Shown: positions 1-64,000 of the stretch, one piece after another
Position numbering within the stretch: the stretch's first letter is position 1
Layout: every line of letters starts with the position of its first letter
NCBI GenBank assembly: GCA_035692185.1
Contig: DASSIE010000010.1
Location: 2,879-66,878, forward strand
From: Patescibacteria group bacterium
Lineage (GTDB): Bacteria; Patescibacteriota; Microgenomatia; UBA8517
DNA: 64,000 nucleotides
Direction: 5' to 3'
The notes under the pieces: generated by a model
Databases searched by the model: none
The model's input: the letters and a program-made list of their open reading frames with translations, nothing else
What the model was told of the DNA's origin: nothing
Program-made: the position numbers and the translations under genes

Positions 1-1011
1 GTACTTCTTTTTGGCTTGTTTATTTTGGGTATTAAAAAATTGTATTTTGATAAGGACCGAAAGATATTAATAATATTCATATTCTCGCTACTGATCTCTC
101 TCTCAATTTTCATACCCCAAAGTAGGTCCGCATCGCAACTTCTTGAAGTTAACCCAATGTGGTTAGTAAATACCATGATTGATGCAGGGGACAGAGTTGG
201 GATACCTGATTTTACTGCGAAAAGATTTGCTTATCTCGGAGGCCGTGAATGGTTTAAGTTTTCAATCATAGAAATAATTGGTTTAATAATATTTTTTGTT
301 GGCAATCTAGGGACAAGAATTATCGTAATTTTTGCAATAAAGAAAAGCCAGTTAAAAAGTGACCTGTTTATTTTAATATTTTCAATGATGACGATTTCTT
401 TTATACCAATTATAATTTTTACCCAAAAAGGCAACCCTTGGAATATAATTCAATTCTTTTATTATTTTATTTATTTTGCTGGACTAATGGCAGCTTACAG
501 TTTAAGAAGAATGCCTCTAGTACTTGCTATCTTAATTATCGCCGTTACCCCAATTAGCTCTATCTCTACATTTAGAAGCTGGTTATATCCAAATCCACCT
601 GCATATTTATCAATCAAAGAATCTGAGGCTTTAAATTACCTGTCAAAGAAACCAGAGGGAATAGTGCTTAAACATCCATTTGATAATATATTAAGAGATA
701 GGTTTAAAGACCCATTTCCAATTGCTGTGTATGCGGATAGCATATACGTATCAGCGTTTTCCGGCAAAAGTGTTTTTATTGAAGATGTAGAACAGCAAAT
801 AGTGTTAAATACCGATTATAAAAACAGGCTTGCTGACGCAAACAGGTTTTTTATTGAAAAAGATTTAAAATGGTCAAATAAATTCTTAATCGATAACAAT
901 ATTAGATATATTTATCTGCCAAAAATTTACAAGCTACCTATGGCAGAAGCGGAATACTCAATGGTCAAGATTTTTGAGAATGAAGATGCTAATATTTACA
1001 AAGTAATATGA
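1..1011 (+). CDS. Polytopic membrane protein, 5'-partial (C-terminal part; paralog of 2739..4631)
   Basis: Frame is open to position 1 (ORF track starts at a TTG), so the gene begins upstream of the window. Multiple hydrophobic helices. The C-terminal soluble region (ESEALNYLSKKPEGIVLKHP...IYLPKIYKLP...VKIFENEDANIYKVI) parallels the C-terminus of the 2739..4631 minus-strand protein (SKNELEALRFVKEN...VYFPKIQKPN...LIFENSDVEVWKAN). Confidence 0.4.
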   Translation, partial: VLLFGLFILGIKKLYFDKDRKILIIFIFSLLISLSIFIPQSRSASQLLEVNPMWLVNTMIDAGDRVGIPDFTAKRFAYLGGREWFKFSIIEIIGLIIFFVGNLGTRIIVIFAIKKSQLKSDLFILIFSMMTISFIPIIIFTQKGNPWNIIQFFYYFIYFAGLMAAYSLRRMPLVLAILIIAVTPISSISTFRSWLYPNPPAYLSIKESEALNYLSKKPEGIVLKHPFDNILRDRFKDPFPIAVYADSIYVSAFSGKSVFIEDVEQQIVLNTDYKNRLADANRFFIEKDLKWSNKFLIDNNIRYIYLPKIYKLPMAEAEYSMVKIFENEDANIYKVI

Positions 1012-2189
1012 CAACACAAATAAAGAAACTATTAGTGCTGGCAATATTTTTACGCCTATTAGTAGCAGGGTTTTTATTTCACCCTGATATAAAAACGATA
1101 AACTTTCAGACTTCATTTTTAAAACATGGAGTTTTTAATATCTATTCCTATTTAGTCGAAAACAAAAAGACTCTACCGCTTAAAGATAATTTTGTTTACT
1201 TTCCACTTACATATTTTACAGTTGGAGGATACCAGTGGTTAGCATCTCCAATTTTAGGAAAAGGTTTTGATTTATGGCTTTCTGATGCTGGTTCAAATTC
1301 AGTAGTCACAAATTCCAATATTTTTAAATACTTAATTTTGTTAAAATTGCCACTTCTGGCAATGGATATTGCGATTGCGTTTCTTCTAATGAGGTTCTTT
1401 GAAACACGTGAGGATAAAGAGAAGGCGTTTATTTTCTGGCTTTTTAATCCATTTACAATAATTATCATTTATGCGTTCTCAAATATAGATATATTTTCGG
1501 TAAGTTTAACTCTTCTTTCATTTTTAATGATCAAAAAGGAAAAACTAATTTTGGCATCTTTTTTATTGGGAATCGCTGCAGGATTTAAATTATACCCACT
1601 ACTTTTTGTTCCCTTTCTCTTTTTATCAGGTCGTAATTTAAAAGAAAAAATGCTTTTAAGCGTTATTCCCCTAGTTACATTTGGACTAGTAATATTTCCG
1701 TTTGTTTCTCCTGCGTTTTTTCAGTCGGCCTTAGTTTCAGGTCTTACAACTGGGATTTTTATGTCGGATTTTGCGGTATTGGCCTTGTCGCTTCTATTTT
1801 TCTATGCCGTGTTAATTGACAAGAAAATTAATACATTTAATTATTGGATCATACTGTTTCTAATAATTTTTTCGTTTGCATTATTTCATATTCAATGGCT
1901 ACTTTGGATCGCCCCGTTTTTAACTATATTGGCAGTTAAAAATTTAAAGCTTTCCTGGGTTATTATTATTTTAAGTATTTTGGCATTTTTAGTCCCCATG
2001 CTTTATGAAGACAGATATATGACGATTTCTCTATTTAGAGTTTATAGCACTTGGTATGATTTGCTTCCCACTCCGTTTGTTTTTATTCAGAAGGTCTACG
2101 ATCCAAGTAATTTACAAAATGTGATTCATTCTGCTTTTGCCGGAGGAAGTCTGGTTATGATTTACAAACTTTTTAAAGAATCTGTATGA
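1008..2189 (+). CDS. Polytopic integral membrane protein, putative GT-C-like glycosyltransferase (DUF2029/GT87-like)
   Basis: 393 aa, about 10 hydrophobic segments. A conserved-looking loop (KDNFVYFPLTYFTVGGYQW) and FKLYPLLFVPFLFL resemble lipid-linked-sugar-dependent mannosyltransferase families. The start overlaps the upstream stop (ATGA coupling). Confidence 0.3.
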   Translation: MTTQIKKLLVLAIFLRLLVAGFLFHPDIKTINFQTSFLKHGVFNIYSYLVENKKTLPLKDNFVYFPLTYFTVGGYQWLASPILGKGFDLWLSDAGSNSVVTNSNIFKYLILLKLPLLAMDIAIAFLLMRFFETREDKEKAFIFWLFNPFTIIIIYAFSNIDIFSVSLTLLSFLMIKKEKLILASFLLGIAAGFKLYPLLFVPFLFLSGRNLKEKMLLSVIPLVTFGLVIFPFVSPAFFQSALVSGLTTGIFMSDFAVLALSLLFFYAVLIDKKINTFNYWIILFLIIFSFALFHIQWLLWIAPFLTILAVKNLKLSWVIIILSILAFLVPMLYEDRYMTISLFRVYSTWYDLLPTPFVFIQKVYDPSNLQNVIHSAFAGGSLVMIYKLFKESV

Positions 2190-2782
2190 AAAAATTAATT
2201 TGGTTTACAGCAATTTTTGTTCTATTTTTAGTTTTTATTGTTCCAGGAATCCTAGCACTTGGAATTAAGTTAATACCAAACGGAGATCAGCCTGGGTATG
2301 ATTCAAACAGACGATTAAGTATTTATGGGGTTAGAGCAGTAAGCCAAAAATTCGTATCAGATAAAAATAACTTGTCTGCAGTTGGGACCTCGCTAAGAAA
2401 TCCAAATTTAAAAAACAAGAAGAATATAATTTTCAATTTATATGATCTAAATAATAATTTAATTCGAACATCAATTTTAAATGGTCAAAATGTTCAAGAT
2501 GGTGACTTTACGAAGTTTGTATTTGATCCAATTAAAGACTCCAAAGACAAAGTTTATATTTTTAACATTTCCTCCCCCGAAACAGGTCCTGAAGAAACAA
2601 CAGAAGTTTTTTACGGGCAAGACATGCCCGCCTGGATAGTTGAATATATATATGATGAGAAAATTCACACAGGAGGAATACCTATCGTCTTATATACAAA
2701 ACCCAACAGTAAATTTGAAGTAATAAAAGAAATTTATTCTAATTGGCTTTCCAGACTTCTACATCTGAATTCTCAAAGATAA
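2186..2782 (+). CDS. Membrane-anchored protein of unknown function (N-terminal TM, extracytoplasmic domain)
   Basis: 198 aa with a single N-terminal hydrophobic helix (LIWFTAIFVLFLVFIVPGILALGI) followed by a polar N/K/D-rich domain. I recognise no catalytic motif. The start overlaps the upstream stop. Confidence 0.3.
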   Translation: MKKLIWFTAIFVLFLVFIVPGILALGIKLIPNGDQPGYDSNRRLSIYGVRAVSQKFVSDKNNLSAVGTSLRNPNLKNKKNIIFNLYDLNNNLIRTSILNGQNVQDGDFTKFVFDPIKDSKDKVYIFNISSPETGPEETTEVFYGQDMPAWIVEYIYDEKIHTGGIPIVLYTKPNSKFEVIKEIYSNWLSRLLHLNSQR

Positions 2783-4631
2783 GTGATAAACCAATTTCCC
2801 TTGGACTTATATTTGGCTTTTGAATCTTCGGAAAATAAACTATATTTGCGTTTGTTTTAGAAAAAGCCTTATCAACATCGCTCGCCCCTTTGCTTTCGAA
2901 AAATAACCTTTTTATTTCAAGTCTACTTTTGTAATCATATCCCATTATGTCGTTTTGTTCGTAATCGTCCATATAAACTCTTCTTGAACTAAAGGTTGGT
3001 ATATATGAAGTGTCAAACCAATCCCAGATATTTGGGGTAGAATCTTTTAGGTTAAGGTCTGAGTTATATGGCGGGGTTAAGATAACATCGTTTTCATTTG
3101 TATTTTCTTTAACAAACCTTAAAGCTTCTAATTCGTTTTTTGATATTTTTGCAAATGCAGGACGTGAATATAGTTCATGATACAAACCAGCTTGAGTAGG
3201 AACCATCAGAACAACCAATAATGTGGAAAACAAAATCTGATAAACAGGGTACTTGAGTAGTTTTAAAGAATAATTTGTCGAAATTCCAGCTAATATTCCA
3301 AATAGTAATACAAAATACTGTAAGAATTGACTAGTGTTGCCCGCAACTCCCCTTTGTAGAAAAAGTAGTGGGAGAACTATAGATAAAATTATTACGAGCA
3401 TAAAAATTAAAGAAAAGTAATTTTTGAAAGATAATTTTGCTTGTTTTATAAAATCAAATAGCCCTATAAACCTCATACCCAAATTCCCAAAGAAGAAAAT
3501 TGTAAGTCCCAACCCTTCCAAAAAAATTACTCTTTTTAAGTTATGTTCATAAACATATGTCTGACGTTTTAATTCCCAATCTAAAAAGTTCAAGCGAGAC
3601 GGTTCAACAATCATTGTTCTTATGTACCACCATGGCTGAAATATTAAAAATGATGCTCCACCAGAAGAGTTTGGAAAATATAAGATAGCAGCCAGTATTC
3701 CACTCAAAAAAGTAAGTAGAAGTAACTGTGGAGTTTTACGATCACCAGATTGCAAGCTTTGCTTATTTTTAATAAGTTGCCAAATTCCAGTCATCCCGAT
3801 CGCCAAAAGTAGAACAAAGCCGGCATATATCTTAAAAGCAGACAGGGTTCCAAGGAGAAGAACACAAATTGCAAAGTTGAGCTTCCCCTTTTCCCTTAGT
3901 AGTTTTAGAAGAAAATATAGCCCAGTTAAAACCAAAAAGTTAGATATTATTTGTGGTGGGTTTCCGCTTGAACTTTGGGGTTGGGTGGCCCAGAAAATAC
4001 TTTCTCCAGCAATAGTTTTATTTTTAAGGTAGGTAACTATAAAACCAAAACTTCCAGCAAAATACGTAAATACAACAGCCCAAATACTTGCACCGAAACT
4101 ACCTGTCATTCTTTTCGTCAAATAGAATGCAGAAGCACCTAAAAACAGAGAGTAAATTAGCGGAAACACTCTAAAATATAAATCTAAATTAGATATTGGG
4201 GTATATTTGCTAACCATTGCCGGTAAAACATCAGAAAAGAAATGATAATTTACAAGTTTTTGTCCTGCAAAACTTGGATTTTGAAGCGGATATCCCTTTT
4301 TAATTTCTTCCATTAAGGCAATATGCCAAGTAGCGTCATGTCCATGTGCACTCCAAAAAACAAGGTCACCATTTTGATAGGTTCCACTTGGCGAAATCAC
4401 TGCAAGCTGTATGGCAATTCCAACCACAAAAACTAAAATCGTTATAATGGTTTGGAAATCAAACTTTAATCTAATATTTCTAACCTCAGCGATAAAAGGT
4501 TTATATATCCAGATTGTAAGAATTATCGATATAGGAATAATTAGAAAAGGAATGTGTAAAACTATAAAGATGTATGAAAGTAGAGTAAGAGCTACAAAAC
4601 CGACTATTCCACCCATTAGTAATTTCTCCAT
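2739..4631 (-). CDS. Polytopic membrane protein, putative GT-C-like glycosyltransferase (paralog of 1..1011)
   Basis: 630 aa, many TM helices, then a C-terminal soluble domain sharing motifs with ORF 1..1011. Its 3' end overlaps that of the convergent 2186..2782 gene. Confidence 0.4.
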   Translation of the reverse strand: MEKLLMGGIVGFVALTLLSYIFIVLHIPFLIIPISIILTIWIYKPFIAEVRNIRLKFDFQTIITILVFVVGIAIQLAVISPSGTYQNGDLVFWSAHGHDATWHIALMEEIKKGYPLQNPSFAGQKLVNYHFFSDVLPAMVSKYTPISNLDLYFRVFPLIYSLFLGASAFYLTKRMTGSFGASIWAVVFTYFAGSFGFIVTYLKNKTIAGESIFWATQPQSSSGNPPQIISNFLVLTGLYFLLKLLREKGKLNFAICVLLLGTLSAFKIYAGFVLLLAIGMTGIWQLIKNKQSLQSGDRKTPQLLLLTFLSGILAAILYFPNSSGGASFLIFQPWWYIRTMIVEPSRLNFLDWELKRQTYVYEHNLKRVIFLEGLGLTIFFFGNLGMRFIGLFDFIKQAKLSFKNYFSLIFMLVIILSIVLPLLFLQRGVAGNTSQFLQYFVLLFGILAGISTNYSLKLLKYPVYQILFSTLLVVLMVPTQAGLYHELYSRPAFAKISKNELEALRFVKENTNENDVILTPPYNSDLNLKDSTPNIWDWFDTSYIPTFSSRRVYMDDYEQNDIMGYDYKSRLEIKRLFFESKGASDVDKAFSKTNANIVYFPKIQKPNISPREIGLSLIFENSDVEVWKAN

Positions 4632-4658: not shown

Positions 4659-6104
4659 ATGATACGCAAAACGACATTAATACTTATTGGGATTGTTTTT
4701 TTTGGCTTTTTGCTGCGAGCTTATAGAATTACATCACTTCCAATGTATGGCGACGAGCTTACGATGGTATATGACACTTATTCTATCCTTAAAACCGGAA
4801 TGGACGCGACAGGTGAGCGTATGCCACTTACATTTAGAATGGGAGCGGGGCGACCTGGAGGATATATTTATGCCTCAATTCCATTTGTGAGCATTTTTGG
4901 CCCAACCGAACTTGGCATAAGATCATTATCTGTTTTGTCTGGTTTAGGAATAATAGTTTTAATGTTCTTTTTGGCTAAAAAGCTGTTTGATAATGAGAAA
5001 ATAGGACTTATTGCTAGCTTTTTGACATCAATTTCGATGTGGGATATCTATCTCTCAAGAGGTGGTTTTGAAGCGCACTTCGCCCTCTTATTAGCCTTAC
5101 TTGGAGTTACAGCCTTTATATATAGTAAATATTTAATTTGGGCGATCGCTTGGGGACTAACAATATTTACATATCCAACATTTAAATTAACCCTCCCAAT
5201 AATTTTTCCATTATTAATTTGGTTTTGGGAACATAAATTTGGAGAACATAAATTTGGAGTACATAAAACAATAGTTAAAAATAAATTATTTGTTGCATCT
5301 TTGATAGTTCTGACGCTTTTTGGAGTGTTGGTAATTCGTGAATCTTTAAAGGGAAGAAGCGAAGAGCGTTTTTTGAGTTCGAATATTTTCTCTGACTCAG
5401 GAATGAAGGAGCAACTAATTCAAAAGATAAATGACGAGCGAAACCTATCTAGTCTTCCAAAATTTATTAAACCAGTCTTTTACAATAGACCTTACGAATA
5501 TTTTAGAATCGTATCAGAAAATTATATTGATAATTTGTCACCCGGATTCCTTTTTCTTAGGGGTGATGGTAATCCAAGACACAATTCGGGAGAGTGGGGA
5601 ATGTTATATTTTATAGAATTCCCGATTTTACTGGTTGGAATATATAAACTTTGGATTGAAAAAAAGAAAGACATAATTTTTCTTGGAGGGTGGATTCTCA
5701 TTACACCCCTGGCGACAATGCTAATGGGTGAACCGCACGCCTTAAGAAGCGATTTTATGCTACCGCCAATACTATTGATAACTTCATATACTTTATCGAA
5801 ATTCACCAGAAAACAATTTTATTTTATTTTCGGACTGATGTTTTTACAACTCATTCTTATACTAAACGCGATTTATTTTTTGTCTCCGAACAAATTTGCA
5901 AGTTTTTGGTCGGCAGATGCAAAAACCGAGTCATTGAAGGCAATTAATAGTTCAAAAAAAGATAAAAAAGTTACACTTTCTACAAAAATAGATAATATCG
6001 AATATGCGTATGAAGTTTATGCAAAAATAGATCCGAACTTGGTTATATCTCAATATGGAAAATTCCCAAAAGTTTTTGGGAGTGTTTTGATAGTGGATAA
6101 GTAA
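4659..6104 (+). CDS. GT39/GT83-like (PMT/ArnT-type) polyprenol-phosphate-sugar dependent membrane glycosyltransferase
   Basis: N-terminus LRAYRITSLPMYGDELTMVYDTYSILKTGMDATGERMPLTFRMG carries the DE motif in the first extracytoplasmic loop, as in PMT/ArnT-type GT-C enzymes. About 10 TM helices. Contains an in-frame 15-bp tandem duplication (EHKFGEHKFG). Confidence 0.55.
   Translation: MIRKTTLILIGIVFFGFLLRAYRITSLPMYGDELTMVYDTYSILKTGMDATGERMPLTFRMGAGRPGGYIYASIPFVSIFGPTELGIRSLSVLSGLGIIVLMFFLAKKLFDNEKIGLIASFLTSISMWDIYLSRGGFEAHFALLLALLGVTAFIYSKYLIWAIAWGLTIFTYPTFKLTLPIIFPLLIWFWEHKFGEHKFGVHKTIVKNKLFVASLIVLTLFGVLVIRESLKGRSEERFLSSNIFSDSGMKEQLIQKINDERNLSSLPKFIKPVFYNRPYEYFRIVSENYIDNLSPGFLFLRGDGNPRHNSGEWGMLYFIEFPILLVGIYKLWIEKKKDIIFLGGWILITPLATMLMGEPHALRSDFMLPPILLITSYTLSKFTRKQFYFIFGLMFLQLILILNAIYFLSPNKFASFWSADAKTESLKAINSSKKDKKVTLSTKIDNIEYAYEVYAKIDPNLVISQYGKFPKVFGSVLIVDK
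5229..5267 (+). repeat. 15-bp perfect tandem duplication (gaacataaatttgga x2 plus partial third copy) inside CDS
   Basis: Read directly: 5229-5243 and 5244-5258 are identical, followed by gtacataaa. Encodes EHKFG-EHKFG-VHK in frame. Confidence 0.9.
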
Positions 6105-6111: not shown

Positions 6112-7788
6112 TTACTGCGGAGAAACAATAAAATAAGCTGCGTTACCGTTTGTTAAATAAATCTTTTTAAGAAGCTCACCTTTCTTGAGATCTTTTTCAG
6201 GCAAGTTCCACGGACTACCAACGAACAAAACCCCCTTTTTGAATTTATCATCTCCCCATTCAATATGTCTAAATGTGTATTTATCAAATTTAAAATACGG
6301 ACTCTCAATATCTGTTCCCAGGGTTTTAGTCTCATCTTGATACCTCTTAGGGTCATATTTTAAATAAAAACGAACATATAGAAATGGATTAGCAACCATG
6401 TTTGGTGCATCAACACCATGTCGTTGGTCAAAAACAATCTCTTTATAATCATCTTGATGCTTTCCGATATAGAGAACTGCTTGTTTTAAACCTTCGTCGT
6501 AATATTCTCCCCTATCTCTTGGAAAATGTACTGAAAAAACCAGAAAAGCATGTATTAGATTTATGATGATAAATAAACCGTATAAAGAACTAATTAAAAA
6601 TTTTAAATATTTGTAGTTAACTGTTTTTATCCATTTAATAAATTCAATAAGTCCCAAAGTTGTTATTAATAATAGAATTGGGCCTATATGAAGAAGCCTA
6701 CCTCCATGCTGCTGATTATTGGTTAATGAGTCAGGAATAATTCCAACCAATAACCAAATAATAAAGATATTCTTATGTGGAATCTGTTTTTTAATAAAGG
6801 AAAATATACCCAGAATAAGCCAGGGTATTTCAAAAATATACAAAAGCCCCAAGCCAAAAATGTCGTATGTTGTCATGTGTAGACCGTTAAAGAAAAGAAA
6901 ATCAAAATCGATATAATTTAGATATCTTTTAAGCCAAAATATAAACAGAAGCGGTAAATCATTTATAGAATCAAAATATTTTACCAAGACATAACGGCTG
7001 AAATCGATATCATTACTTATTAGGACCATTGACAGTCTGGTTCCAGCTCCTTGGAAAAATGTCGAATAAATAAGTGGACTAACCAGTAAGAGACAAGTAA
7101 ATAAAAATAGTGCTAACCATTTGTAATTACCTTTTAATTTTTTGATATTAAAGGCAACTACTATACCTATAAATAACGGTACAAAAAACCTTTGCGCAAA
7201 AGAAGTGTACATTGTTAGTACTAAGAAAAAAGCAGACAGTAAAGAAAACCACCTTTTCCCGTCAAGAAACATCATGTAAAACCAGATGCCGAGGAATGCG
7301 AAAAGACTACCAATCAAAGGTTCATACGCAAACCTTGAGTAAAATATAAACCATGCGGAAACTGCCATTAAAAAAGATCCAACAAATGCAAGTTTTTTGT
7401 CTTTTAATATATATAGTAAAAAAAGATAAAAGATTGGAATAAATATAGTTCCAAAAAAAGCATTTGGAAATCTTACAGCAAAATCGGTTAAGCCAAGTGC
7501 CTTTATGGGTAGTAACATTAAATAAGCTGGTACTGGGTTTTTGTAGTCACCAACAGACTTAAAAACTAAAGGCAAAAATTTTCCAAATTCATCCCTGCCG
7601 GTTTTAAGTATTGAATACGCTGAATAACCAAAAGATATTTCGTCCCCGTTAAGGCTTGGAGGGTTTGCCGCAATTTTGTAGAACCTTAAAAATCCACCCA
7701 AAAAAGTAATTCCAAATAATATTAGTAAAGTTGTTAATATATTTTTCTTCATATTTTTACGGTTCTGTAATTTGGTATTTATCACCAA
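6112..7788 (-). CDS. GT39/GT83-like (PMT/ArnT-type) membrane glycosyltransferase
   Basis: N-terminus FLRFYKIAANPPSLNGDEISFGYSAYSILKTGRDEFGKFLPLVFKSVGDYKNP is the same signature as the + strand paralogs. Polytopic. The C-terminal domain motif (YLKYDPKRY...) is conserved with the paralogs. Confidence 0.55.
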   Translation of the reverse strand: MVINTKLQNRKNMKKNILTTLLILFGITFLGGFLRFYKIAANPPSLNGDEISFGYSAYSILKTGRDEFGKFLPLVFKSVGDYKNPVPAYLMLLPIKALGLTDFAVRFPNAFFGTIFIPIFYLFLLYILKDKKLAFVGSFLMAVSAWFIFYSRFAYEPLIGSLFAFLGIWFYMMFLDGKRWFSLLSAFFLVLTMYTSFAQRFFVPLFIGIVVAFNIKKLKGNYKWLALFLFTCLLLVSPLIYSTFFQGAGTRLSMVLISNDIDFSRYVLVKYFDSINDLPLLFIFWLKRYLNYIDFDFLFFNGLHMTTYDIFGLGLLYIFEIPWLILGIFSFIKKQIPHKNIFIIWLLVGIIPDSLTNNQQHGGRLLHIGPILLLITTLGLIEFIKWIKTVNYKYLKFLISSLYGLFIIINLIHAFLVFSVHFPRDRGEYYDEGLKQAVLYIGKHQDDYKEIVFDQRHGVDAPNMVANPFLYVRFYLKYDPKRYQDETKTLGTDIESPYFKFDKYTFRHIEWGDDKFKKGVLFVGSPWNLPEKDLKKGELLKKIYLTNGNAAYFIVSPQ

Positions 7789-17828: not shown

Positions 17829-17862
17829 GAGTGTTTACAAATGATGAGTGTTTACAAATGAT
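17829..17862 (+). repeat. 17-bp perfect tandem duplication (gagtgtttacaaatgat x2) at the 5' end/leader of the flippase gene
   Basis: Read directly: 17829-17845 equals 17846-17862. It lies between the upstream stop (17822-17824) and the probable ATG ATG start at 17858/17861. Confidence 0.9.
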
Positions 17863-47715: not shown

Positions 47716-47933
47716 TTTATTGGATTTTATTAATAATTATTATTATTTTTACAAAATATAAAGTTGCTAGTGGGACTCTCTTTCAAGCAGGTTTAATAAT
47801 GATGCTAGTTGGAGCTTTTTTTGATATTTTTAAACTAACTGATATTTCAGAAATGTTGTTAAGTGCGGCATTAATTCTTTGGGTTGTTGGAATTGTCGGA
47901 ACCTGTATAGATCTATATAAACATAAATTATGA
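47712..47933 (+). CDS. Small hydrophobic membrane protein (73 aa), unknown
   Basis: Two to three predicted TM helices. Translationally coupled (ATGA) between two giant paralogs. Confidence 0.3.
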   Translation: MIYWILLIIIIIFTKYKVASGTLFQAGLIMMLVGAFFDIFKLTDISEMLLSAALILWVVGIVGTCIDLYKHKL

Positions 47934-51921: not shown

Positions 51922-51931
51922 ATTTCAAAAA

Positions 51932-57238: not shown

Positions 57239-58563
57239 TCACAATTTTAATAATAATAATTCTAATTAACGTTTTTGTATTGTCAAAGCTTGTATTTTTT
57301 CCGTATCCTGAACTTTTTATTTATCCATATCTAACTAACCATGGTCTTATTCCTTACACCGACATACTCGACCAACATTTTCCAGGTCTTATTTTTTTTC
57401 CTGTTAACCTTGGAACATTGGGAATGCATTCCCCAGAAATTGCTCGCTATTGGCAGTATGGGGCGGTCGTAATTATCCACCTAATTTTGTATTTAGTTGC
57501 AAAAAAGATACTAGGGCCAAAAAAAGCATTACTCGCAAATTTAATATTTTTAATTTGGCAGCCATATTTTGAAGGATGGGTTCTTTGGATTGATTCGTTT
57601 TTGCCAATTCTAATTCTATCTTCGCTTTATTTTCTAATATCTAAGAAAAACTTTTGGTCAGGATTTTTTCTTGGCGTAGCACTTCTTTTTAAACAAGTAA
57701 TAGCGCCACTTATTGCACTCGTTGGACTTTACATACTTTTTAAAGAAAGAAAATTCAAACCAGCCTTCATATTTAGTCTGGGTGTACTAATACCAACCTT
57801 ATTTTTAATTAAATATGTAAACGATTTAGGCATTTGGAAGGATTTTATTTTTTGGACTGTCACTTTTAATACCGGTGTTTTTGCCGAAATGGGTAGGAAA
57901 TATGGAACAATAAGTGAGATTGCAAGGGTGGTGGGTGTATACGGGTTTGCAGCTTTTTCTTTTTTTGACGAAAAATTTAGAGAGAATACACTTCTGATTG
58001 GAATATTTTTAATAGGATCGCTGGCGAGTGTTTATGCCAGGTTTGATTTTGTACACCTCCAACCGAGTTTGCCATTTGTAGCACTACTAAGCGCGATATC
58101 GATTAATTGGCTTTTAAAAAAGAAATATTTAAAGGTTTTGATTGCAATATACATATTGGTGGCTATTTATTTACTCTCACAATTTTATAAGGGTCTTGTT
58201 GGATCAAAAATTTTTTTCCAGGGAGAAACAGAAAGACGTGTAACACAAGTGGTCCAAAGATTATCAAAAAAGGAAGACAAAATATTTTCTCTTGGAACAA
58301 TGCCGATAGTTTACGAAATGGCAGATAGGCTCCCCCCAGGGAACGTTTTTGTTTTTCAATTCCCTTGGTTTATGACTGTAGCAGAAAACCGTATTTTATC
58401 GGGTATAATTAGTGATCCACCAAAGGTTGTGGTGAGAGACGTCAACGCGGTTGTTGAGGGTAAAAAGCTGATTTTATATATGCCCAAAATTAACGACTAT
58501 ATAAATGAGCATTATAAAGTTATCGATAAAATTGATGAAATTGAAATAATGGTTAGAAAATAA
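57235..58563 (+). CDS. Polytopic integral membrane protein, putative GT-C-like glycosyltransferase (DUF2029/GT87-like)
   Basis: 442 aa. First loop LIPYTDILDQHFPGLIFFPV, about 10 TM helices. GVALLFKQVIAPLIALVGLYIL resembles a motif in 1008..2189. Confidence 0.35.
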   Translation: MITILIIIILINVFVLSKLVFFPYPELFIYPYLTNHGLIPYTDILDQHFPGLIFFPVNLGTLGMHSPEIARYWQYGAVVIIHLILYLVAKKILGPKKALLANLIFLIWQPYFEGWVLWIDSFLPILILSSLYFLISKKNFWSGFFLGVALLFKQVIAPLIALVGLYILFKERKFKPAFIFSLGVLIPTLFLIKYVNDLGIWKDFIFWTVTFNTGVFAEMGRKYGTISEIARVVGVYGFAAFSFFDEKFRENTLLIGIFLIGSLASVYARFDFVHLQPSLPFVALLSAISINWLLKKKYLKVLIAIYILVAIYLLSQFYKGLVGSKIFFQGETERRVTQVVQRLSKKEDKIFSLGTMPIVYEMADRLPPGNVFVFQFPWFMTVAENRILSGIISDPPKVVVRDVNAVVEGKKLILYMPKINDYINEHYKVIDKIDEIEIMVRK

Positions 58564-58566: not shown

Positions 58567-59622
58567 ATGAAAATAGGAATAGATATAAGCCAAATTGTTT
58601 ACGGAACAGGAGTGTCGCTTTACACCAAACAACTGGTGGAAAATTTGCTAAAAATTGATACCCAAAACCAATATGTTTTGTTTGGAGGATCGCTGCGTAG
58701 AAAGCAGGATATTTTAAATTTGTTTCCACAATCAAAGGTATTTCCAATCCCTCCCACACTGGCAGACCTTGTTTGGAATAGATTACATGTAATGCCAGTT
58801 GAGAAGTTGATTGGGGAGATAGATGTTTTGCATACTTCCGACTGGACAGAACCGCCATCTAAAGCTTTTAAAGTAGCTACAGTACACGATCTTTACTCTT
58901 TAAAGTTTCCTAGAATGATAGATCCGTTAATCCGTGAAGTTCACAAAAGAAAGCTAGCATGGGTTTTTAAAGAATCCAGCAGAGTAATAGTTCCTTCAAA
59001 AGCAACAAAAGATGACCTAATAGGTTTTGGGATGGATGAAAATAAAATTAGAGTTATTCAAGAGGCTCCGAATTTAGAAAAAGCCACGAGTGCGGAAGTC
59101 GAGAAAACAAAACAAAAATATGGAATAACAGGGGATTACGTTATTGCTATTGGTATTACAAAACTTAAAAACACAGAAAACATAATTAAAGCCTTTGACT
59201 TAGCCAGACATGGCCAGGATATTAAGTTGTTATTGGTAGGTAGACCAGTAGGAGTAAAGCTCGAAGTGGTACGAAACGTGCGTAATTTGGGGTATATTGA
59301 GTCAGATGAGTTGTCACCCTTATTGACAGGATCAAGAGGGCTTATTTTCCCATCTATATACGAAGGGTTTGGAGTACCAATACTTGAAGCATTTAATTGT
59401 GGAGTTCCTGTTGTTACGTCGAATATCGGTAGCATGCTTGAGGTGGCCGGGGACGCGGCTGTACTTGTTGACCCATATAATGTTAATTCTATCGCTGAAG
59501 GAATAATTAAAGCCCTTAAGGGGCCTAAGGGACTAATTGAGAAGGGTACCTCTCGTGTTAAGCAATTTTCTTGGGAGGACACAGCTAGAAAAACATTGGA
59601 AGTATATATGGAAGCAAAATAA
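58567..59622 (+). CDS. GT4 family glycosyltransferase
   Basis: PSIYEGFGVPILEAFNCGVPVVTSNIGS. Confidence 0.65.
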   Translation: MKIGIDISQIVYGTGVSLYTKQLVENLLKIDTQNQYVLFGGSLRRKQDILNLFPQSKVFPIPPTLADLVWNRLHVMPVEKLIGEIDVLHTSDWTEPPSKAFKVATVHDLYSLKFPRMIDPLIREVHKRKLAWVFKESSRVIVPSKATKDDLIGFGMDENKIRVIQEAPNLEKATSAEVEKTKQKYGITGDYVIAIGITKLKNTENIIKAFDLARHGQDIKLLLVGRPVGVKLEVVRNVRNLGYIESDELSPLLTGSRGLIFPSIYEGFGVPILEAFNCGVPVVTSNIGSMLEVAGDAAVLVDPYNVNSIAEGIIKALKGPKGLIEKGTSRVKQFSWEDTARKTLEVYMEAK

Positions 59623-59627: not shown

Positions 59628-60758
59628 ATGATTATTGGTATTGATGGCAACGAAGCTAATGTTAAGAATAGAGTAGGGGTAAACATGTATGCCTTCAAGC
59701 TCATTTGGAATTTGTGGAAACTACAGGGGGAATGGGAATCTCGTCATAGACTTATAGTTTACTTAAAAAATGAACCACTCCCCGACCTTCCGAAAGAAAC
59801 GCAAAACTTCAAGTATAAAATTGTTTCTGGGGGCGGACTTTGGATAGTTACTAAATTAATTCCAAATCTATTTTTTAGTCGGCCCATGCCTGATATTTTT
59901 TTCTCTCCGAGCCATTACGTTCCGTTTTTATCTCCGACACCGACGATTTGTTCAATTATGGACCTGGGTTACCTCGAATATACGGGACAATTTACTAAAA
60001 AAGACTTTTGGCAGTTAAAACTGTGGACTGCTATTTCAATTTTTGTATCAAAGTCTATCATTGCTATATCAAATAGTACGAAAAATGAGATTGTACGACA
60101 CTACCCATTTTCGAATAATAAAATTTATATTACGCACCTCGCATCTGACATAAGCGAACGAGATATGAATATCTCACCAGCCGATGTGCGACGCATCAAA
60201 AATAGGTACTCCATAGTTGATGACTATGTGCTGTACATCGGAACCTTAAAACCAAGCAAGAACATTGAGGGTTTGATCGAAGCGTTCTCTAAAATTAATA
60301 TTCCAAGTTCAAAAATACAGCTAGTTATTGCCGGCAAGAAAGGTTGGCTCTACGAAACGATTATTGAAAAGGTAAAAAGTTTGAAATTGGAAGATAAGGT
60401 TATTTTTACAGATTATATTAGTGAAGAAGACAAATCGATACTCAGAAAGGGTGCAAAAGTGTTTGTACAACCATCATTTTGGGAGGGTTTTGGAATAGAC
60501 ACCCTATCAGCCATGGCCGTTGGGGTACCGGTTGTTGCATCAAACGCTGGGAGTTTGCCGGAAGTAGTAGGGAACGCGGGAATTTTAGTTGACCCCTATA
60601 ACACGGATAGTATCGCAGGTGGCATTAAAGAGGTGCTTTTAGCTAGTACTTCGAAGTATAATAGTATGGTCAAGGCAGGTGAAGCCCAGGCTAACAAGTT
60701 TTCTTGGGAAAAGTGTGCCCGGGAAACATTAAAAATACTCGAGGCCAGCCAGAGATAA
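59628..60758 (+). CDS. GT4 family glycosyltransferase
   Basis: PSFWEGFGIDTLSAMAVGVPVVASNAGS. Confidence 0.65.
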   Translation: MIIGIDGNEANVKNRVGVNMYAFKLIWNLWKLQGEWESRHRLIVYLKNEPLPDLPKETQNFKYKIVSGGGLWIVTKLIPNLFFSRPMPDIFFSPSHYVPFLSPTPTICSIMDLGYLEYTGQFTKKDFWQLKLWTAISIFVSKSIIAISNSTKNEIVRHYPFSNNKIYITHLASDISERDMNISPADVRRIKNRYSIVDDYVLYIGTLKPSKNIEGLIEAFSKINIPSSKIQLVIAGKKGWLYETIIEKVKSLKLEDKVIFTDYISEEDKSILRKGAKVFVQPSFWEGFGIDTLSAMAVGVPVVASNAGSLPEVVGNAGILVDPYNTDSIAGGIKEVLLASTSKYNSMVKAGEAQANKFSWEKCARETLKILEASQR

Positions 60759-60765: not shown

Positions 60766-61362
60766 ATGTTAAAAGACAAAAACGGGAAATCATTATCAAA
60801 TTCTCAAGTTTTACAAAAGGCGGGTAGCCGTATTTATAACTACATACTTGATGTTGAACTTATGGTCTTAAGGTGGGTTGGGTATATACCATCTCATTTT
60901 ATTCGAAAATTTTTCTATCGCCTGGCGGGAATCAAAATTGGAAAAGGTTCAGCAGTCCACATGTGGGCAAATTTCTTTGAACCAAATAATATAAACATCG
61001 GCAACGATACAATTATCGGTGACCGTGTTTTTCTTGATGGTAGGTCAATGCTAACAATTGGAAATCATGTAGATATAGCTTCACAGGTTTTGATCTACAA
61101 TTCAGAACACGATTTAGAAAAAGAGGATTTTTCTGCGCGTACCGAGCCCGTGCAAATCGGTGACTATGTATTTATTGGTCCAAGAGCAATAATTTTGCCG
61201 GGAGTAAAAATTGGGAAAGGTGCAATTATTGCTGCAGGGGCGGTTGTAACAAAAGATGTACAAGATTTTGCAATTGTTGGTGGTGTACCAGCAAAGGAAA
61301 TTGGCGAGCGCACTAATAAAAATCCAAATTACAAACTCGGTCGTCCCCGTCTTTTTCAATAG
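60766..61362 (+). CDS. Hexapeptide-repeat sugar O-acetyltransferase (WcaF/WbbJ/maltose O-acetyltransferase-like)
   Basis: NINIGNDTIIGDRVFLDG...IGNHVDIASQVLIY...VQIGDYVFIGPRAIILPGVKIGKGAIIAAGAVV, typical left-handed beta-helix. Confidence 0.6.
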   Translation: MLKDKNGKSLSNSQVLQKAGSRIYNYILDVELMVLRWVGYIPSHFIRKFFYRLAGIKIGKGSAVHMWANFFEPNNINIGNDTIIGDRVFLDGRSMLTIGNHVDIASQVLIYNSEHDLEKEDFSARTEPVQIGDYVFIGPRAIILPGVKIGKGAIIAAGAVVTKDVQDFAIVGGVPAKEIGERTNKNPNYKLGRPRLFQ

Positions 61363-61367: not shown

Positions 61368-61889
61368 ATGAAAAAAGTTGCAAAAATTTTATTTGTTTTG
61401 TTTGGAATTGGGCTATTTGTATATTTAGCTTGGCCTGCACCACTTTTCCCAAAAACATTGTGGGATTTTGAGTCTTCAACCGAACCTGCGGATAAGGAAT
61501 CTCCATTAAGACGTGGATATTACACAAATTTAACTCGAGAGCAATTAATGGACCATTATTCAAAAGAATTTAATTGGGGTCTAAGGCTTAATTACCCACC
61601 TGAGGAAGCAAAAACTATAATAAGAGATCAAACCAAGGCTACATTCCTGGAAGAAATAGTTCACCCAATGCGGGAATCATTGTTTATTGCTGGTAATGAG
61701 CAAAAACCCGGTAAGGGGCTATTCGAGATTAATGGTAATAAGTTTAAGCAAAAAGTAATTGTAAAATATGTTGACTCGAATATTTTTGTTAGAATCGCGA
61801 TTGGAGCTTCTATTATGATCCTGATATGGATACTAGTAATGGAATGGGCAACAACTATAGAAAAAAACAAAAAATGGATCTCTCGATAA
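61368..61889 (+). CDS. Membrane protein of unknown function (N- and C-terminal TM helices flanking a soluble domain)
   Basis: 173 aa. N-terminal ILFVLFGIGLFVYLAW, C-terminal IAIGASIMILIWILVM. No motif recognised. Confidence 0.3.
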   Translation: MKKVAKILFVLFGIGLFVYLAWPAPLFPKTLWDFESSTEPADKESPLRRGYYTNLTREQLMDHYSKEFNWGLRLNYPPEEAKTIIRDQTKATFLEEIVHPMRESLFIAGNEQKPGKGLFEINGNKFKQKVIVKYVDSNIFVRIAIGASIMILIWILVMEWATTIEKNKKWISR

Positions 61890-62779
61890 TAATCACTAGT
61901 TTTAATACAAAAGACCTTTTAACAACTTGTATTAAATCTATTTTCAAATTTACAAAAAATATTAATTTTGAAGTTATAGTCGTAGACAACAATTCTACCG
62001 ATGGGTCAGCCGAAGCAGCCAAGGCTTTAGGTTCAGTCATAATCAAAAATAAAGAAAACCTTGGGTTTGCAACTGCAAACAATCAAGGATTTAAAATTTC
62101 TCGGGGTAAATACATCCTTTTCTTAAACTCTGACACTGAAATTAATGATAATGTTCTTGGGGAAATGATTTCTTGGATGAAAGATAACACAACAGTTGGA
62201 GTTTCTTCGAGTGCACTAAGGAATAAAGACGGAAGTATGCAGGCAACAGGTGGCTATTTTCCAACACTTCCTAGAGTTTTTTCTTGGATGACAATTCAAG
62301 ATCTGCCTTTTGTTGACAATATAATCAAGCCTTTTCACCCATACCACGCCAAATCATTTTTTTCCAAGGGCGACAGTTTTTATAGATCTAAAAAAGAACT
62401 TGATTGGGTAACAGGTGCATTTTTGCTTTGTAGACGGGAGGCTTTAGAAAAAATAAAGGGTTGGGATGAAACATTCTTTATGTATGTCGAGGAAGTTGAT
62501 TTGTGTTTTAGAGTAAAGCAAATGGGGTATTCAATTTGGTACTTACCAAAATGGAATATAACCCACCTTGGAGGGGCAAGTAGTAAAACTAGTGAGTTCT
62601 CTTTAATATCTGAATATAAAGGTGTAATAAAGTTTTACGCAAAACATTACCCCTCGTGGCAACTTCCAATATTAAGGCTAATTCTAAAAATTGGCGCTCT
62701 GGGCAGAATAATACTATTTGGTATACTGGAAGGACCAAGTTCAGCAAAAATATATGCAAAAGCTTTCAGCACTGTTTAA
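61826..62779 (+). CDS. GT2 family glycosyltransferase
   Basis: LSIIITSFNTKDLL...FEVIVVDNNSTDGS...FLNSDTE. Confidence 0.6.
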   Translation: MDTSNGMGNNYRKKQKMDLSIIITSFNTKDLLTTCIKSIFKFTKNINFEVIVVDNNSTDGSAEAAKALGSVIIKNKENLGFATANNQGFKISRGKYILFLNSDTEINDNVLGEMISWMKDNTTVGVSSSALRNKDGSMQATGGYFPTLPRVFSWMTIQDLPFVDNIIKPFHPYHAKSFFSKGDSFYRSKKELDWVTGAFLLCRREALEKIKGWDETFFMYVEEVDLCFRVKQMGYSIWYLPKWNITHLGGASSKTSEFSLISEYKGVIKFYAKHYPSWQLPILRLILKIGALGRIILFGILEGPSSAKIYAKAFSTV

Positions 62780-64000
62780 CAAAACATTCAAATATTTAAT
62801 TGCTGCACTATTAATTATCGTTCCACTTTATCCTAAATTTCCATTTATCCAGATTCCAGGTACTTACGTGGCTATACGAGCAGAAGATTTTTTGCTTGCC
62901 ACAATGGCGATATTTATTTTAGTTAAATTTACTCCAACTATTAAAAAATTTTTGACAGACGATATTGTACGAGCAATGATATTATTCTTAAGTGTTGGGC
63001 TTGTGTCTTTTATTTCTGGAGTATTGTTAACAAAAACGGTAGTTTTTAACATCGGTATTCTCCACTTTTTTCGTCGTATTGAATATTTTATACCTTTTTT
63101 TGCGGCCTTCGCTGTTCTTTATGATAAAAAAGAAAAGAACCTAGAATTTTACTTAAAGGTTTTAATGATTGTTATTTTTGGTGCGTTTATCTATGGATTT
63201 GGCCAGCGTTATTTTAACTTTCCAGTAATAATTACTCAGGACTCTGAATCCTCAAAGGGACTGGCTTTAAGGTGGACTGCTGGGAGCCAAATAACCTCAA
63301 CTTTTGCCGGTCACTATGATCTTGCTGCATTTATGGTTTTGGTTTTACCAATTATTATAAGTTTATATTTTGTTCTTGAGAATAAACTAACAAAATCATT
63401 ACTGTTAATTGTCGCGCTCTCCGGTTTTTGGCTTTTGGTGAGCACTGCTTCAAGGATTTCATTAGCTTCTTATTTGATATCAGCCTGTTTTTCTCTATTT
63501 TTACTTAAAAAATATAAAGGAATTGTTTTTGTGGTTCTAATAAGCATCGTGTTAAGTGGATTTTCATCAAATCTATTCGCAAGGTATAAAAGTTTAATTG
63601 ATGTTTATTCACAAAAAATCATGAATTTAAAGATTGTTGACAATAATCCATTTAGATTTGTTGTTTCAGCCCAGGAGACTACTTTGAATAAGCGTGAAGC
63701 TACTCCAATTCCAGCCCCATCAATACCTGTAGTTGAAGATAGGTCAACTTCAATTAGATTAAATGTTGAGTGGCCACGGGCAATCCGTTCGTTTACAAAG
63801 AATCCCCTGATCGGAACCGGTTATTCATCAATCGGTTTAGCAACAGATAACGACTATTTAAGACTACTGGCAGAAGTTGGTCTATTGGGATTTTTAGCAT
63901 TCATGCTTATAATGGTTAGAATAATGTTTGTTTTTATTTCAGCTTTACCATTAACCCAAAAATTTTCGGGTATTGAACTTGGTTTTATAGCAGGGACAAT
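62754..64000 (+). CDS. O-antigen ligase/polymerase (Wzy_C domain)-like polytopic membrane protein, 3'-partial (runs off window)
   Basis: I translated this frame by hand from ATG 62754. It stays open to the window end, so it is absent from the ORF track. About 10 hydrophobic helices plus a periplasmic loop ...RLNVEWPRAIRSFTKNPLIGTGYSSIGLATDNDYLRLLAEVGLLGF, which resembles the Wzy_C/WaaL loop motif. Confidence 0.5.
   Translation, partial: MQKLSALFNKTFKYLIAALLIIVPLYPKFPFIQIPGTYVAIRAEDFLLATMAIFILVKFTPTIKKFLTDDIVRAMILFLSVGLVSFISGVLLTKTVVFNIGILHFFRRIEYFIPFFAAFAVLYDKKEKNLEFYLKVLMIVIFGAFIYGFGQRYFNFPVIITQDSESSKGLALRWTAGSQITSTFAGHYDLAAFMVLVLPIIISLYFVLENKLTKSLLLIVALSGFWLLVSTASRISLASYLISACFSLFLLKKYKGIVFVVLISIVLSGFSSNLFARYKSLIDVYSQKIMNLKIVDNNPFRFVVSAQETTLNKREATPIPAPSIPVVEDRSTSIRLNVEWPRAIRSFTKNPLIGTGYSSIGLATDNDYLRLLAEVGLLGFLAFMLIMVRIMFVFISALPLTQKFSGIELGFIAGT

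Follow-up and report, generated by a model that had tools for sequence, protein, structure and literature searches.

The 64-kb stretch of DNA analysed here (the window) is, with a probability of about 80%, the central part of a conserved ~92-kb envelope-glycan supercluster in which a glycan would be built in two stages. The data show its gene families, predicted folds, synteny, boundaries in relatives and host lineage. The host belongs to the Microgenomates (CPR/Patescibacteria) and is Woesebacteria-like, with Ca. Woesebacteria and Daviesbacteria as its nearest relatives. Complete chromosomes of relatives measure 982,852 and 1,078,985 bp (0.98-1.08 Mb) and put the host genome at about 1 Mb. 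The ~92-kb composite would represent some 8-9% of a ~1-Mb chromosome (8.5-9.4% by the relatives' genome sizes). Since that share of the chromosome would lie in one glycan cluster, a complex glycan on the surface probably has a central role in the life of these cells. A first-pass annotation, made from the sequence alone, had suggested a small CPR-like genome with a very large share of its coding capacity in this locus; both suggestions hold, and the locus is larger than had been supposed.

The 56 ORFs called span 99.9% of the window and were all scanned against Pfam; NCBIfam was also used for family assignment, hhalign for profile-profile comparison and Foldseek for structural models. The Pfam scan identified the ORFs as glycan-biosynthesis genes and placed none of the 56 in an unrelated functional class, in agreement with the earlier claim of essentially no other gene classes. 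Only g03 (2186..2782; 198 aa with an N-terminal TM segment), g54 (61368..61889; a 173-aa membrane protein) and a small 73-aa membrane ORF (47712..47933) between the giant genes g40 and g41 lack an assignment, and g03 and g54 keep their positions in relatives. No NCBIfam match among the window ORFs reaches an equivalog cut-off. Glycosyltransferases account for 35 of the 56 ORFs, a density far beyond chance; whole CPR genomes are reported in the literature to hold 20 and 29 in total. Together, these results confirm the first-pass observation almost gene for gene and support its interpretation, each testable part of which held. Genes described here lie on the plus strand unless marked (−).

Eleven genes carry a GT2 domain (PF00535) and seven a GT4 domain (PF00534), exactly as first estimated. 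The GT2 genes are g12 (14822..15682), g17 (19080..19895), g21 (23179..24099), g25 (26626..29082), g29 (32193..33212), g32 (34873..35715, −), g38 (41881..43479), g43 (51869..52639), g46 (54088..54792), g49 (56513..57238) and g55 (61826..62779, true start probably 61874). Two of these are fusions: g25 combines SDR 4,6-dehydratase-like, methyltransferase and Dpm1/AglJ-like GT2 domains, and g38 joins a GT2 to a methyltransferase. The GT4 genes are g13 (15679..16686), g20 (22066..23163), g30 (33209..34339), g36 (39812..41002), g47 (54796..55740), g51 (58567..59622) and g52 (59628..60758). Three GT2 proteins had been described as Dpm1-like. At the level of the family this stands for g46 and for the C-terminal region of g25; support is weaker for g17, which weakly resembles polyprenyl-phosphate glycosyltransferases. 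The 234-aa g46 is a candidate Dpm1/GtrB/ArnC-like polyprenyl-phosphate sugar synthase; its best matches among sequences of solved structures are GtrB (5EKP, 3e-14), DPMS (5MLZ, 2.5e-13) and ArnC, and it is AglJ/PpgS-like by NCBIfam. Among the window ORFs, none was recognised as a GtrA-type flippase for polyprenyl-phosphate sugars. The two expected Wzx-type flippases were found, g42 (50638..51921; PF13440/PF01943) and a single frame comprising g15 and g16 (17831..19138; PF01943). The latter is interrupted by an in-frame TAA stop at 18509-18511. The Wzy/ligase-like gene g56 (62712..64000; Wzy_C, PF04932; polymerase, ligase or O-OTase type) runs past the 3' end of the window, and its full length of 464 aa was read from sequence L002.

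Polytopic GT-C-like membrane proteins number 17 in the window. Six exceed the Pfam cut-off for PMT/PMT_2, the number of GT39/PMT/ArnT-like proteins initially counted: g06 (6112..7788, −; PMT/PMT_2), g08 (8821..10299; PMT_2), g09 (10305..11927), g10 (11917..13263) and g11 (13260..14825), all three PMT_2/PMT, and g50 (57235..58563; PMT_2). Eight others were counted where at least eight had been proposed. Among them g05 (4659..6104) and g07 (7757..8842, −; weak Pfam match) are PMT_2-like below the cut-off, with hhalign probabilities to g09 of 100% and 99.2%. The GT87-like (MptA/B/PimE-type) g02 (1008..2189; ~8 TM) scores 30.2 bits against PF09594, above the cut-off, with a weak MptA_B_family match, and g14 (16679..17824) is PIG-V-like (Mannosyl_trans2; PF04188, 43.3 bits). 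Neither g19 (20651..22069) nor g27 (29579..31351, −; ~10 TM) has a Pfam match; hhalign joins them to g09 (96%) and to g40 (80%), respectively. The remaining two, g01 and g04, are described below. The three giant proteins, earlier called YfhO/AftD-like, are g35 (37602..39818; 738 aa; PF11847), g40 (44170..47715; 1181 aa) and g41 (47930..50683; 917 aa, with a C-terminal TM anchor); g35 and g41 align to g40 at 100% and 99.9%, the latter relationship being seen in blastp as well. An hhalign network joins g05-g11 (including g08), g19, g27, g50, u2, d2 and g35/g40/g41, and D/E first-loop motifs follow TM1 in its proteins (YGDE in g05, NWDE in g09, TEDE in g19 and FGDD in g27).

The AF2 model of g40 (pLDDT 91) matches mycobacterial AftD (6W98) over its full length (Foldseek E 1.2e-17), and the predicted fold of this 1181-aa protein is AftD-like, with an N-terminal TM catalytic module, a ~700-aa outside domain containing beta-sandwiches that resemble CBMs, and a TM helix at the C-terminus. 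Models also suggest that g04 (2739..4631, −; 630 aa, without a sequence family) and its paralogue g01 (1..1011) fold like the STT3/AglB oligosaccharyltransferases. The window holds the C-terminal 336 aa of g01, a 530-aa polytopic protein whose full length was taken from sequence L001; it has no match in Pfam or NCBIfam and aligns to g04 with an hhalign probability of 100%. The g04 model matches AglB, STT3, Pmt4, AftA and ArnT and has an AglB-S-like C-terminal globular domain. Furthermore, acidic residues of the first outside loops (D99, D134 and E210) are conserved.

Genes for sugar supply and decoration also occur in the numbers first reported. Ten SAM-methyltransferase domains lie in g18 (19881..20621, −), g26 (29038..29592, −), g33 (35736..36494), the FkbM-type g37 (41006..41884), g39 (43481..44194; DUF268/Methyltransf_23), g44 (52633..53403), g45 (53430..54086), g48 (55751..56509) and the two fusions, and two hexapeptide acetyltransferases are encoded by g31 (34336..34890; EpsC/CysE-like) and g53 (60766..61362; WcaF-like). 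From these domains it is reasonable to suppose, as had been proposed, that the product is methylated and acetylated. Three of the four SDR domains are extended, namely g23 (24529..25566; epimerase/dehydratase, with GDP-L-fucose synthase as its top NCBIfam match, below the cut-off), g24 (25558..26556, −) and the N-terminal part of g25; g28 (31417..32196) is a classical SDR oxidoreductase. Additionally, g34 (36491..37588, −) is a WecB-like UDP-GlcNAc 2-epimerase (PF02350, 139.8 bits; TIGR00236, 158 bits, below the cut-off of 210), and g22 (24086..24556) is a Nudix hydrolase that weakly resembles GDP-mannose mannosyl hydrolase (Gmm; 41.7 bits, below the cut-off).

The window derives from a metagenome-assembled genome, and an assembler might in principle be misled by its many paralogues, through the joining of unrelated contigs or the collapse of repeats. 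Such an artefact is nevertheless highly improbable. Window positions 1-12189, 38967-49354 and 55767-64000 are matched at 100.000% identity by three independent Logan contigs from run SRR25158199. The tetranucleotide profiles of 8-kb segments correlate with one another at 0.967 or more, and composition is uniform, with GC of 0.31-0.37 throughout. Paralogues are at most 37% identical (blastp) and thus too diverged for collapse. Furthermore, the left, middle and right synteny of the window is kept in relatives, complete chromosomes included. The assembly is therefore sound and not chimeric.

Both ends of the window lie inside the cluster. The cluster edges, the priming phosphoglycosyltransferase (PGT) and the ManC-like gene were read only in relatives, at 50-80% identity. 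On the left the cluster extends ~18 kb to an MFS transporter gene, followed inward by PMT, Wzx, GT2s, YfhO, PTPS_related and GT87. On the right it extends ~9.5 kb and ends at RecO; in L061 the order is PMT_2, GT4, GT2, GT4, GT4, ManC-like, PF02397 PGT and DUF4012, then RecO, and the block from the ManC-like gene to RecO recurs in more than 20 further loci.

For the working of this supercluster we infer a two-stage division, the sugars involved and the nature of the product, which may be, as first suggested, a glycan of an S-layer or pilin, a lipoglycan or an attachment structure. Unusual sugars, probably of GDP-mannose-derived 6-deoxyhexose and ManNAc type, would be supplied by the ManC-like enzyme encoded beyond the window, the Nudix protein, the three extended SDR domains, the classical SDR and the WecB-like epimerase. 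Polyprenyl phosphate would be primed by the small PF02397 PGT at the right edge, and cytoplasmic GT4 and GT2 enzymes would make one or more lipid-linked oligosaccharides, decorated by the methyltransferase and acetyltransferase domains, flipped by Wzx proteins and polymerised or ligated by the Wzy_C protein. In parallel, g46, the C-terminal domain of g25 and perhaps g17 would make polyprenyl-phosphate monosaccharides. With these, about 20 GT-C enzymes (PMT_2/ArnT-like, GT87-like, PIG-V-like, AftD-like and STT3-fold) may extend and branch the glycan on the external face of the membrane or load an acceptor with sugars, a logic akin to that of LM/LAM/arabinogalactan synthesis in mycobacteria and of GtrB/YfhO decoration in Gram-positive bacteria.

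The locus may comprise several pathways instead of one, given its nine strand switches, with nine minus-strand genes, and three Wzx-type genes in the full cluster (g15/g16, g42 and a third to the left of the window). In such a glycan island, independent pathways, for example one for a Wzx/Wzy heteropolymer, one resembling protein O-mannosylation and one for teichoic-acid-like decoration, would lie side by side. We consider this a serious contender at somewhat below even odds. The PMT_2 array g05-g11, the SDR block g22-g25 and the giant-GT-C block g35-g41 form separate modules, and the set of PMT_2 paralogues differs among relatives. However, gene order and both boundaries are kept across Woesebacteria and Daviesbacteria, the readable parts of the cluster hold only one priming PGT, and genes are tightly packed, with the ATGA-type overlaps noted earlier at 11 of 41 same-strand junctions.

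A system serving mainly protein glycosylation is less likely still. Here g01/g04, the Wzy_C protein (PglL-like) or both would move a flipped oligosaccharide en bloc to S-layer, pilin or adhesin proteins, and PMT_2-type enzymes would then put single sugars on Ser/Thr. AglJ-like GT2s and PMT-family matches are consistent with this, and Wzy_C is also the domain of the PglL/PilO O-OTases. The resemblance of g04 and g01 to STT3/AglB/PglB extends to the overall fold, the AglB-S-like domain and the acidic loop residues. In contrast, the two families share no conserved WWDYG-type motif, sequence comparison gave no match to any solved OST or to Pfam STT3, and Pmt4, AftA and ArnT match the g04 model nearly as well as OSTs do. 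No acceptor protein gene was found within or adjoining the locus.

The preferred two-stage supercluster combines features of several known systems. Like Wzx/Wzy O-antigen, capsule and EPS loci, it combines a priming transferase of the PF02397 family (seen in relatives) with GT4, GT2, Wzx and Wzy_C proteins, sugar-nucleotide enzymes and acetyltransferases of WcaF/WcaB-like type. However, it exceeds the typical size of such loci three- to fivefold, has ~24 GT-C genes and ten methyltransferase domains, and lacks a recognised Wzz/PCP or Wza; a DUF4012 protein lies where one might expect a co-polymerase. Similarly, the Dpm1/GtrB-like g46 is encoded alongside PMT_2-, YfhO- and AftD-type GT-C proteins, as in three-component systems (a GtrB/CsbB-type GT2, a GtrA/GtcA flippase and a GT-C such as GtrC, YfhO or ArnT), but a GtrA-family flippase was not found in the window and the number of GT-C proteins is an order of magnitude higher. 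The proposed use of many GT-C enzymes outside the membrane with polyprenyl-phosphate sugar donors recalls the mycobacterial and corynebacterial envelope machinery (LM/LAM and arabinogalactan: Emb, AftA-D, MptA/B/C, PimE, Pmt, Ppm1), as do the Ppm1/Dpm1-like GT2, the GT87-like g02, the PMT-like members and the AftD-like g40 with its predicted GT-C module and carbohydrate-binding-module-like domains. In contrast to that machinery, the sequence identity of g40 to AftD is only ~10%, a DprE1/UbiA-type pathway for the arabinose donor was not seen, and nothing points to arabinan, mycolates or a PI anchor. Furthermore, the mycobacterial genes are scattered over 4.4 Mb, whereas here a single ~92-kb locus lies in a ~1-Mb genome.

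Pfam models were applied to all 56 ORFs of the window (g01 to g56, numbered from left to right), and the gene inventory claimed in the first-pass annotation was reproduced almost exactly. The window encodes 11 GT2 glycosyltransferases, including the fusion proteins g25 (SDR-methyltransferase-GT2) and g38 (GT2-methyltransferase), seven GT4 enzymes, six PMT/PMT_2 proteins above the Pfam cut-off with two more below it, and a single match each of the GT87-like, PIG-V-like and AftD-like types. Additionally, there are ten SAM-methyltransferase domains, two hexapeptide acetyltransferases, four SDR domains, one WecB-like epimerase, one Nudix protein, two Wzx flippases and a Wzy_C protein (g56) that extends beyond the 3' end of the window. 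Glycosyltransferases make up 35 of the 56 ORFs; two whole CPR genomes have been reported in the literature with 20 and 29 such enzymes. Nine ORFs lack a Pfam match, and five of these (g01, g04, g19, g27 and g41) encode polytopic membrane proteins, as does g40. Pfam placed none of the 56 ORFs in an unrelated functional class, and the statement that the window holds essentially no other gene classes therefore stands.

The ORFs occupy 99.9% of the sequence, 47 of them lie on the + strand, no tRNA was found in the window, and GC content stays between 0.31 and 0.37 along its whole length. The close packing by overlapping start and stop codons noted previously takes the form of ATGA overlaps at 11 of 41 same-strand junctions. 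The sole sizeable gap (214 bp), between the giant GT-C genes g40 and g41, is occupied by a 73-aa hydrophobic ORF (47712-47933); at this position a relative has two small ORFs, 106 and 50 aa long. Two further small membrane-anchored proteins without a family match keep their places in relatives: g03 (2186-2782) between g02 and g04, and g54 (61368-61889) between the acetyltransferase g53 and the GT2 g55.

It is very improbable that the window is an assembly artefact. Positions 1-12189, 38967-49354 and 55767-64000 are matched at 100.000% identity by three Logan contigs that were assembled independently from run SRR25158199, the tetranucleotide profiles of 8-kb segments correlate pairwise at r of at least 0.967, and the gene order recurs in relatives; together with the GC content, these results rule out a chimeric assembly. 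Recent tandem duplication is likewise rejected as the source of the gene counts. Paralogue pairs within the window are at most 37% identical, and thus the counts are not due to recent duplication or collapsed repeats. The g40 protein is identical to VFI61_01490 at NCBI, encoded on a 74,525 bp contig of a TPA MAG named 'Patescibacteria group bacterium'.

In order to place the host, full-length g01 was searched against GTDB representative genomes. The best matches were Patescibacteria MAGs (68-72% identity), followed by Ca. Woesebacteria (60-64%; among them the complete chromosomes of 1,078,985 and 982,852 bp), Ca. Daviesbacteria (38-44%) and Collierbacteria (29%). These matches identify the host as a Woesebacteria-like member of the Microgenomates, a CPR lineage as had been suspected from the CPR-like style of the proteins. 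Its genome is presumably about 1 Mb; this size is taken from the relatives because the source genome is absent from the GTDB representatives, and it agrees with the small genome proposed earlier. UGA recoding of the kind found in Gracilibacteria and Absconditabacteria was rejected in favour of the standard code, since table 11 leaves each of the 56 ORFs intact and many of them terminate in TGA, the ATGA overlaps included. This Microgenomates locus also occurs in many TPA MAG records (L007, L008, L011, L013 and others) whose titles read 'uncultured Gammaproteobacteria' or 'Pseudomonadales bacterium'; these records are evidently mislabelled.

The cluster extends beyond both ends of the window. 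To the left, the source DNA encodes a further pair of large membrane proteins (u1 and u2), whose homologues give PTPS_related and PMT_2 matches. In the complete chromosome CP066686.1 the cluster starts beside a divergently oriented MFS transporter gene, some 18 kb upstream of where the g01 homologue lies, and this left flank contains genes for a PMT, a Wzx, five GT2 enzymes, a GT4, a YfhO protein, two PTPS_related/PMT_2 proteins and a GT87. A left edge of the same type was found in three other records. To the right, the source DNA holds the remainder of the Wzy_C gene, a PMT_2 gene (d2) and the beginning of a GT4 gene. The closest metagenomic relative (78% identity) continues with GT4, GT2, GT4, GT4, a ManC-like nucleotidyltransferase, a 216-aa PF02397 phosphoglycosyltransferase and a DUF4012 protein, followed by RecO and an ABC ATPase; the edge running from the ManC-like gene through the phosphoglycosyltransferase and DUF4012 genes to RecO is present in more than 20 other loci. 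Gene order is kept in relatives on the left, in the middle and on the right, with variation in the set of PMT_2 paralogues and in some methyltransferases.

Added together (17,956 + 64,726 + 9,505 bp), these segments form a composite locus approximately 92 kb long, which would correspond to 8.5-9.4% of the relatives' chromosomes, a value derived from the composite and not from one genome. The large share of coding capacity suggested for this single conserved locus would thus be roughly 8-9% of the chromosome. Two Woesebacteria loci, L012 and L098, lie on contigs of equal length (93,130 bp) and orientation. If these are one contig, the distance from g01 to d2 is 66.6 kb there and 66.2 kb in the source, and the contig would be nearly all cluster. 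Within the left flank of CP066686.1, a 277-aa GT2 (L142:10001-10834) shows 80-95% identity across more than 1,600 database proteins and its cluster neighbours diverge to 30-70%, which indicates unusually strong constraint on one glycosyltransferase of the locus. A 118-aa 23S_rRNA_IVP (PF05635) gene also lies in this left part (L142:7616-7972) and is absent from three equivalent loci, L144-L146.

Most of the membrane proteins appear to be GT-C glycosyltransferases. Members of this set (g02, g05-g11, g14, g19, g27, g35, g40, g41 and g50) are polytopic, with 8-13 predicted TM segments, and their assignment is based on Pfam matches to PMT/PMT_2, GT87, PIG-V and AftD in combination with profile-profile links. 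The profile-profile comparison joins g05-g11, g19, g27, g50, u2, d2 and g35/g40/g41 in one PMT_2/GT-C network, with link probabilities of 96% for g19 and 80% for g27. Structure models were built for g40 and g04 only, and the other GT-C folds are assigned from sequence and profiles. Read from the N-termini, a D/E motif follows TM1 in the first loop: YGDE in g05, NGDE in g06, HLDE in g08, NWDE in g09 and g11, YWDE in g10, TEDE in g19, FGDD in g27, GGEEG in g35 and GGGEVG in g40. E45 is nearly invariant across the g40 family. These acidic residues are probably extracytoplasmic, and the presence of Dpm1/GtrB-like GT2s in the same locus suggests indirectly that the GT-C enzymes may use polyprenyl-phosphate-linked sugar donors.

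The g40 model (pLDDT 91) finds its best structural match over the whole length in mycobacterial AftD (6W98, E 1.2e-17, Foldseek), with STT3 and PglB next. Its outside domain consists of CBM-like beta-sandwiches matching CBM16, CBM4 and CBM22, and a C-terminal TM helix is modelled at 1142-1180. PF11847 is found in g35 and in many g40 homologues. The giants g40, g35 and g41 are therefore best described as having a predicted AftD-like layout, with an N-terminal GT-C module, a large CBM-bearing outside domain and a C-terminal TM anchor; an arabinofuranosyl specificity need not be presumed. Neither g40 nor the g04 family gave matches in sequence searches against PDB entries; for both, fold comparison alone was informative. 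The sole NCBIfam match of g41, a weak MmpA-like stretch (35 bits), was disregarded.

Enzymes that could supply lipid-linked donors are encoded in the same window. Among solved structures g46 is closest to GtrB (3e-14), DPMS (2.5e-13) and ArnC (1.5e-10). Both g46 and g25 match AglJ in NCBIfam (102 and 94 bits, under the equivalog cut-offs), with further resemblance to Dol-P-hexose transferase and PpgS in g46 and in the C-terminal domain of g25. A GT-A domain nearest to DPMS/GtrB/ArnC/AglJ/PpgS was thus found in g46, in the C-terminal domain of g25 and, more weakly (41-51 bits), in g17. Neither g46 nor g17 has a predicted TM segment; some polyprenyl-phosphate glycosyltransferases, such as PpgS and human DPM1, likewise have none. 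Among the soluble enzymes, g22 and g23 show weak NCBIfam likeness to Gmm and Fcl, and g34, g31 and g53 are WecB-like, EpsC-like and WcaF-like, respectively. No enzyme of the window reached an equivalog-level NCBIfam assignment, and thus the specific sugars can be proposed only provisionally.

Components of a Wzx/Wzy-type pathway are also present. The flippases g42 and g15/g16 match PF01943/PF13440, and g56 matches PF04932, a family that does not discriminate among polymerase, ligase and O-OTase. The g15/g16 flippase is one frame (17831-19138) cut by an in-frame TAA at 18509-18511 into pieces of 226 and 203 aa. The stop could mark a pseudogene or a split gene, or stem from an error in sequencing, and this region lies outside the independent Logan contigs. 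Pfam detected no priming phosphoglycosyltransferase among the ORFs of the window. In a relative's locus, L061, a PF02397 protein (206 bits) is encoded some 7 kb beyond the point that corresponds to the end of the window, and similar proteins occur in more than 20 other relatives' loci. A Wzz/PCP chain-length or export component gave no Pfam match in the window or its flanks. The DUF4012 protein of about 660 aa (L061:17517-19505) always follows the priming enzyme, just before RecO, at the equivalent site in more than 20 loci, and is a candidate chain-length, export or attachment component.

With the gene families, folds, synteny and boundaries of the locus established, we infer a two-stage order of synthesis, as we do the sugars and the acceptor of the glycan. 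In the cytoplasm, the PF02397 enzyme would prime polyprenyl phosphate, GT4 and GT2 enzymes would extend the chain, and methyltransferases and acetyltransferases would decorate it, after which Wzx would flip the chain and the Wzy_C protein would polymerise or ligate it. In the second stage, Dpm1/GtrB-like GT2s would load single sugars onto polyprenyl phosphate, and approximately 20 GT-C enzymes would extend, branch or attach the glycan on the external face of the membrane. It is quite possible, at somewhat under even odds, that the locus houses several co-located pathways and not one, an arrangement compatible with the general two-stage model. Rather unlikely is a system directed mainly at proteins, in which the Wzy_C protein and the STT3-fold proteins g01 and g04 would carry out the glycosylation.

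The g01/g04 family bears on this question. These proteins have a GT-C fold with a C-terminal globular 'core' domain (g04 modelled), a feature of OSTs, and residues D99, H103, D134, E210 and K267 are conserved across 95 aligned homologues of g01 and g04. No WWDYG-type motif is conserved in these 95 members; in the corresponding region only P533, Y543 and A546 reach at least 90% conservation, and the 'IWDWFD' stretch of g04 is not kept in the g01 branch. Furthermore, Pfam STT3 (PF02516) did not match any of 45 family members at E up to 1, and a g04 family profile found no OST among PDB sequences. Lacking both the motif and sequence homology to STT3/OSTs, g01 and g04 are ruled out as canonical OSTs, and we describe them as STT3-fold GT-C proteins without filing them as oligosaccharyltransferases. 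More doubtful still than a mainly protein-directed system is the proposal that they form an unrecognised STT3/AglB-like Microgenomates lineage and act as the en-bloc transferase of a two-tier glycosylation system on a 1-Mb genome. If this were true, a Wzx-flipped oligosaccharide would be moved onto surface proteins or another acceptor by a WWDYG-less OST-fold enzyme and then remodelled stepwise outside the cell by approximately 20 GT-C enzymes, and the resulting polymer would dominate the envelope and serve as the contact surface in an episymbiotic lifestyle.

For the two-stage model, the closest logic is that of mycobacterial LM/LAM/arabinogalactan synthesis, with a Wzx/Wzy locus and decoration of the GtrB/YfhO type added to it. 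None of the defining features of arabinan synthesis was found in the locus, nor were the defining sequence features of canonical OSTs. The enzyme families themselves are known, and it is their concentration that is unusual: a single conserved locus of some 92 kb, in a genome near 1 Mb, that also contains the uncharacterised STT3-fold family. The full cluster has about 24 GT-C genes, alongside some 28 glycosyltransferases of the Leloir type. This number of GT-C enzymes is above the one known from Mycobacterium tuberculosis, which has a genome four times the size. Members of the CPR/Patescibacteria combine minimal genomes with a presumed life in attachment to other cells, and to our knowledge their envelope chemistry is essentially unknown. 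Taken together, the estimated 8-9% share of the chromosome and the approximately 24 GT-C enzymes indicate that Woesebacteria and Daviesbacteria make a core investment in an elaborate surface glycan, presumably methylated and acetylated.

In the searched literature on CPR, Patescibacteria, Woesebacteria and Microgenomates, we found no account of this locus and none linking these groups to GT-C enzymes or oligosaccharyltransferases. The papers retrieved note no more than that CPR genomes have 'many glycosyltransferases' (PMC3812714, PMC5220378, PMC7143001), and the words glycosyl, glycan, polysaccharide and S-layer are all absent from a 2024 perspective on Patescibacteria (PMC11665869). EPS genes score as essential or fitness-relevant in cultivated Saccharibacteria (PMC10633639). 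Targets for further study are g46, the candidate maker of lipid-linked single-sugar donors, the AftD-like giants g35/g40/g41, the STT3-fold family and the highly conserved 277-aa GT2 of the left flank. They could serve glycochemistry, cryo-ET and the lectin-based sorting or enrichment of such uncultured cells, and they bear on how an OST-like fold serves bacteria outside the PglB lineage. The STT3-fold family comprises 1,569 representatives at 50% identity, has no match among Pfam and NCBIfam models, and its named database members are all 'hypothetical'. Many members of the family are 1,020-1,160 aa long (P0323, P0326, P0331, P0332 and others) and one reaches 1,639 aa; in these long members the family domain occupies the C-terminal half, fused to another module of about 500 aa that is possibly a second GT-C.
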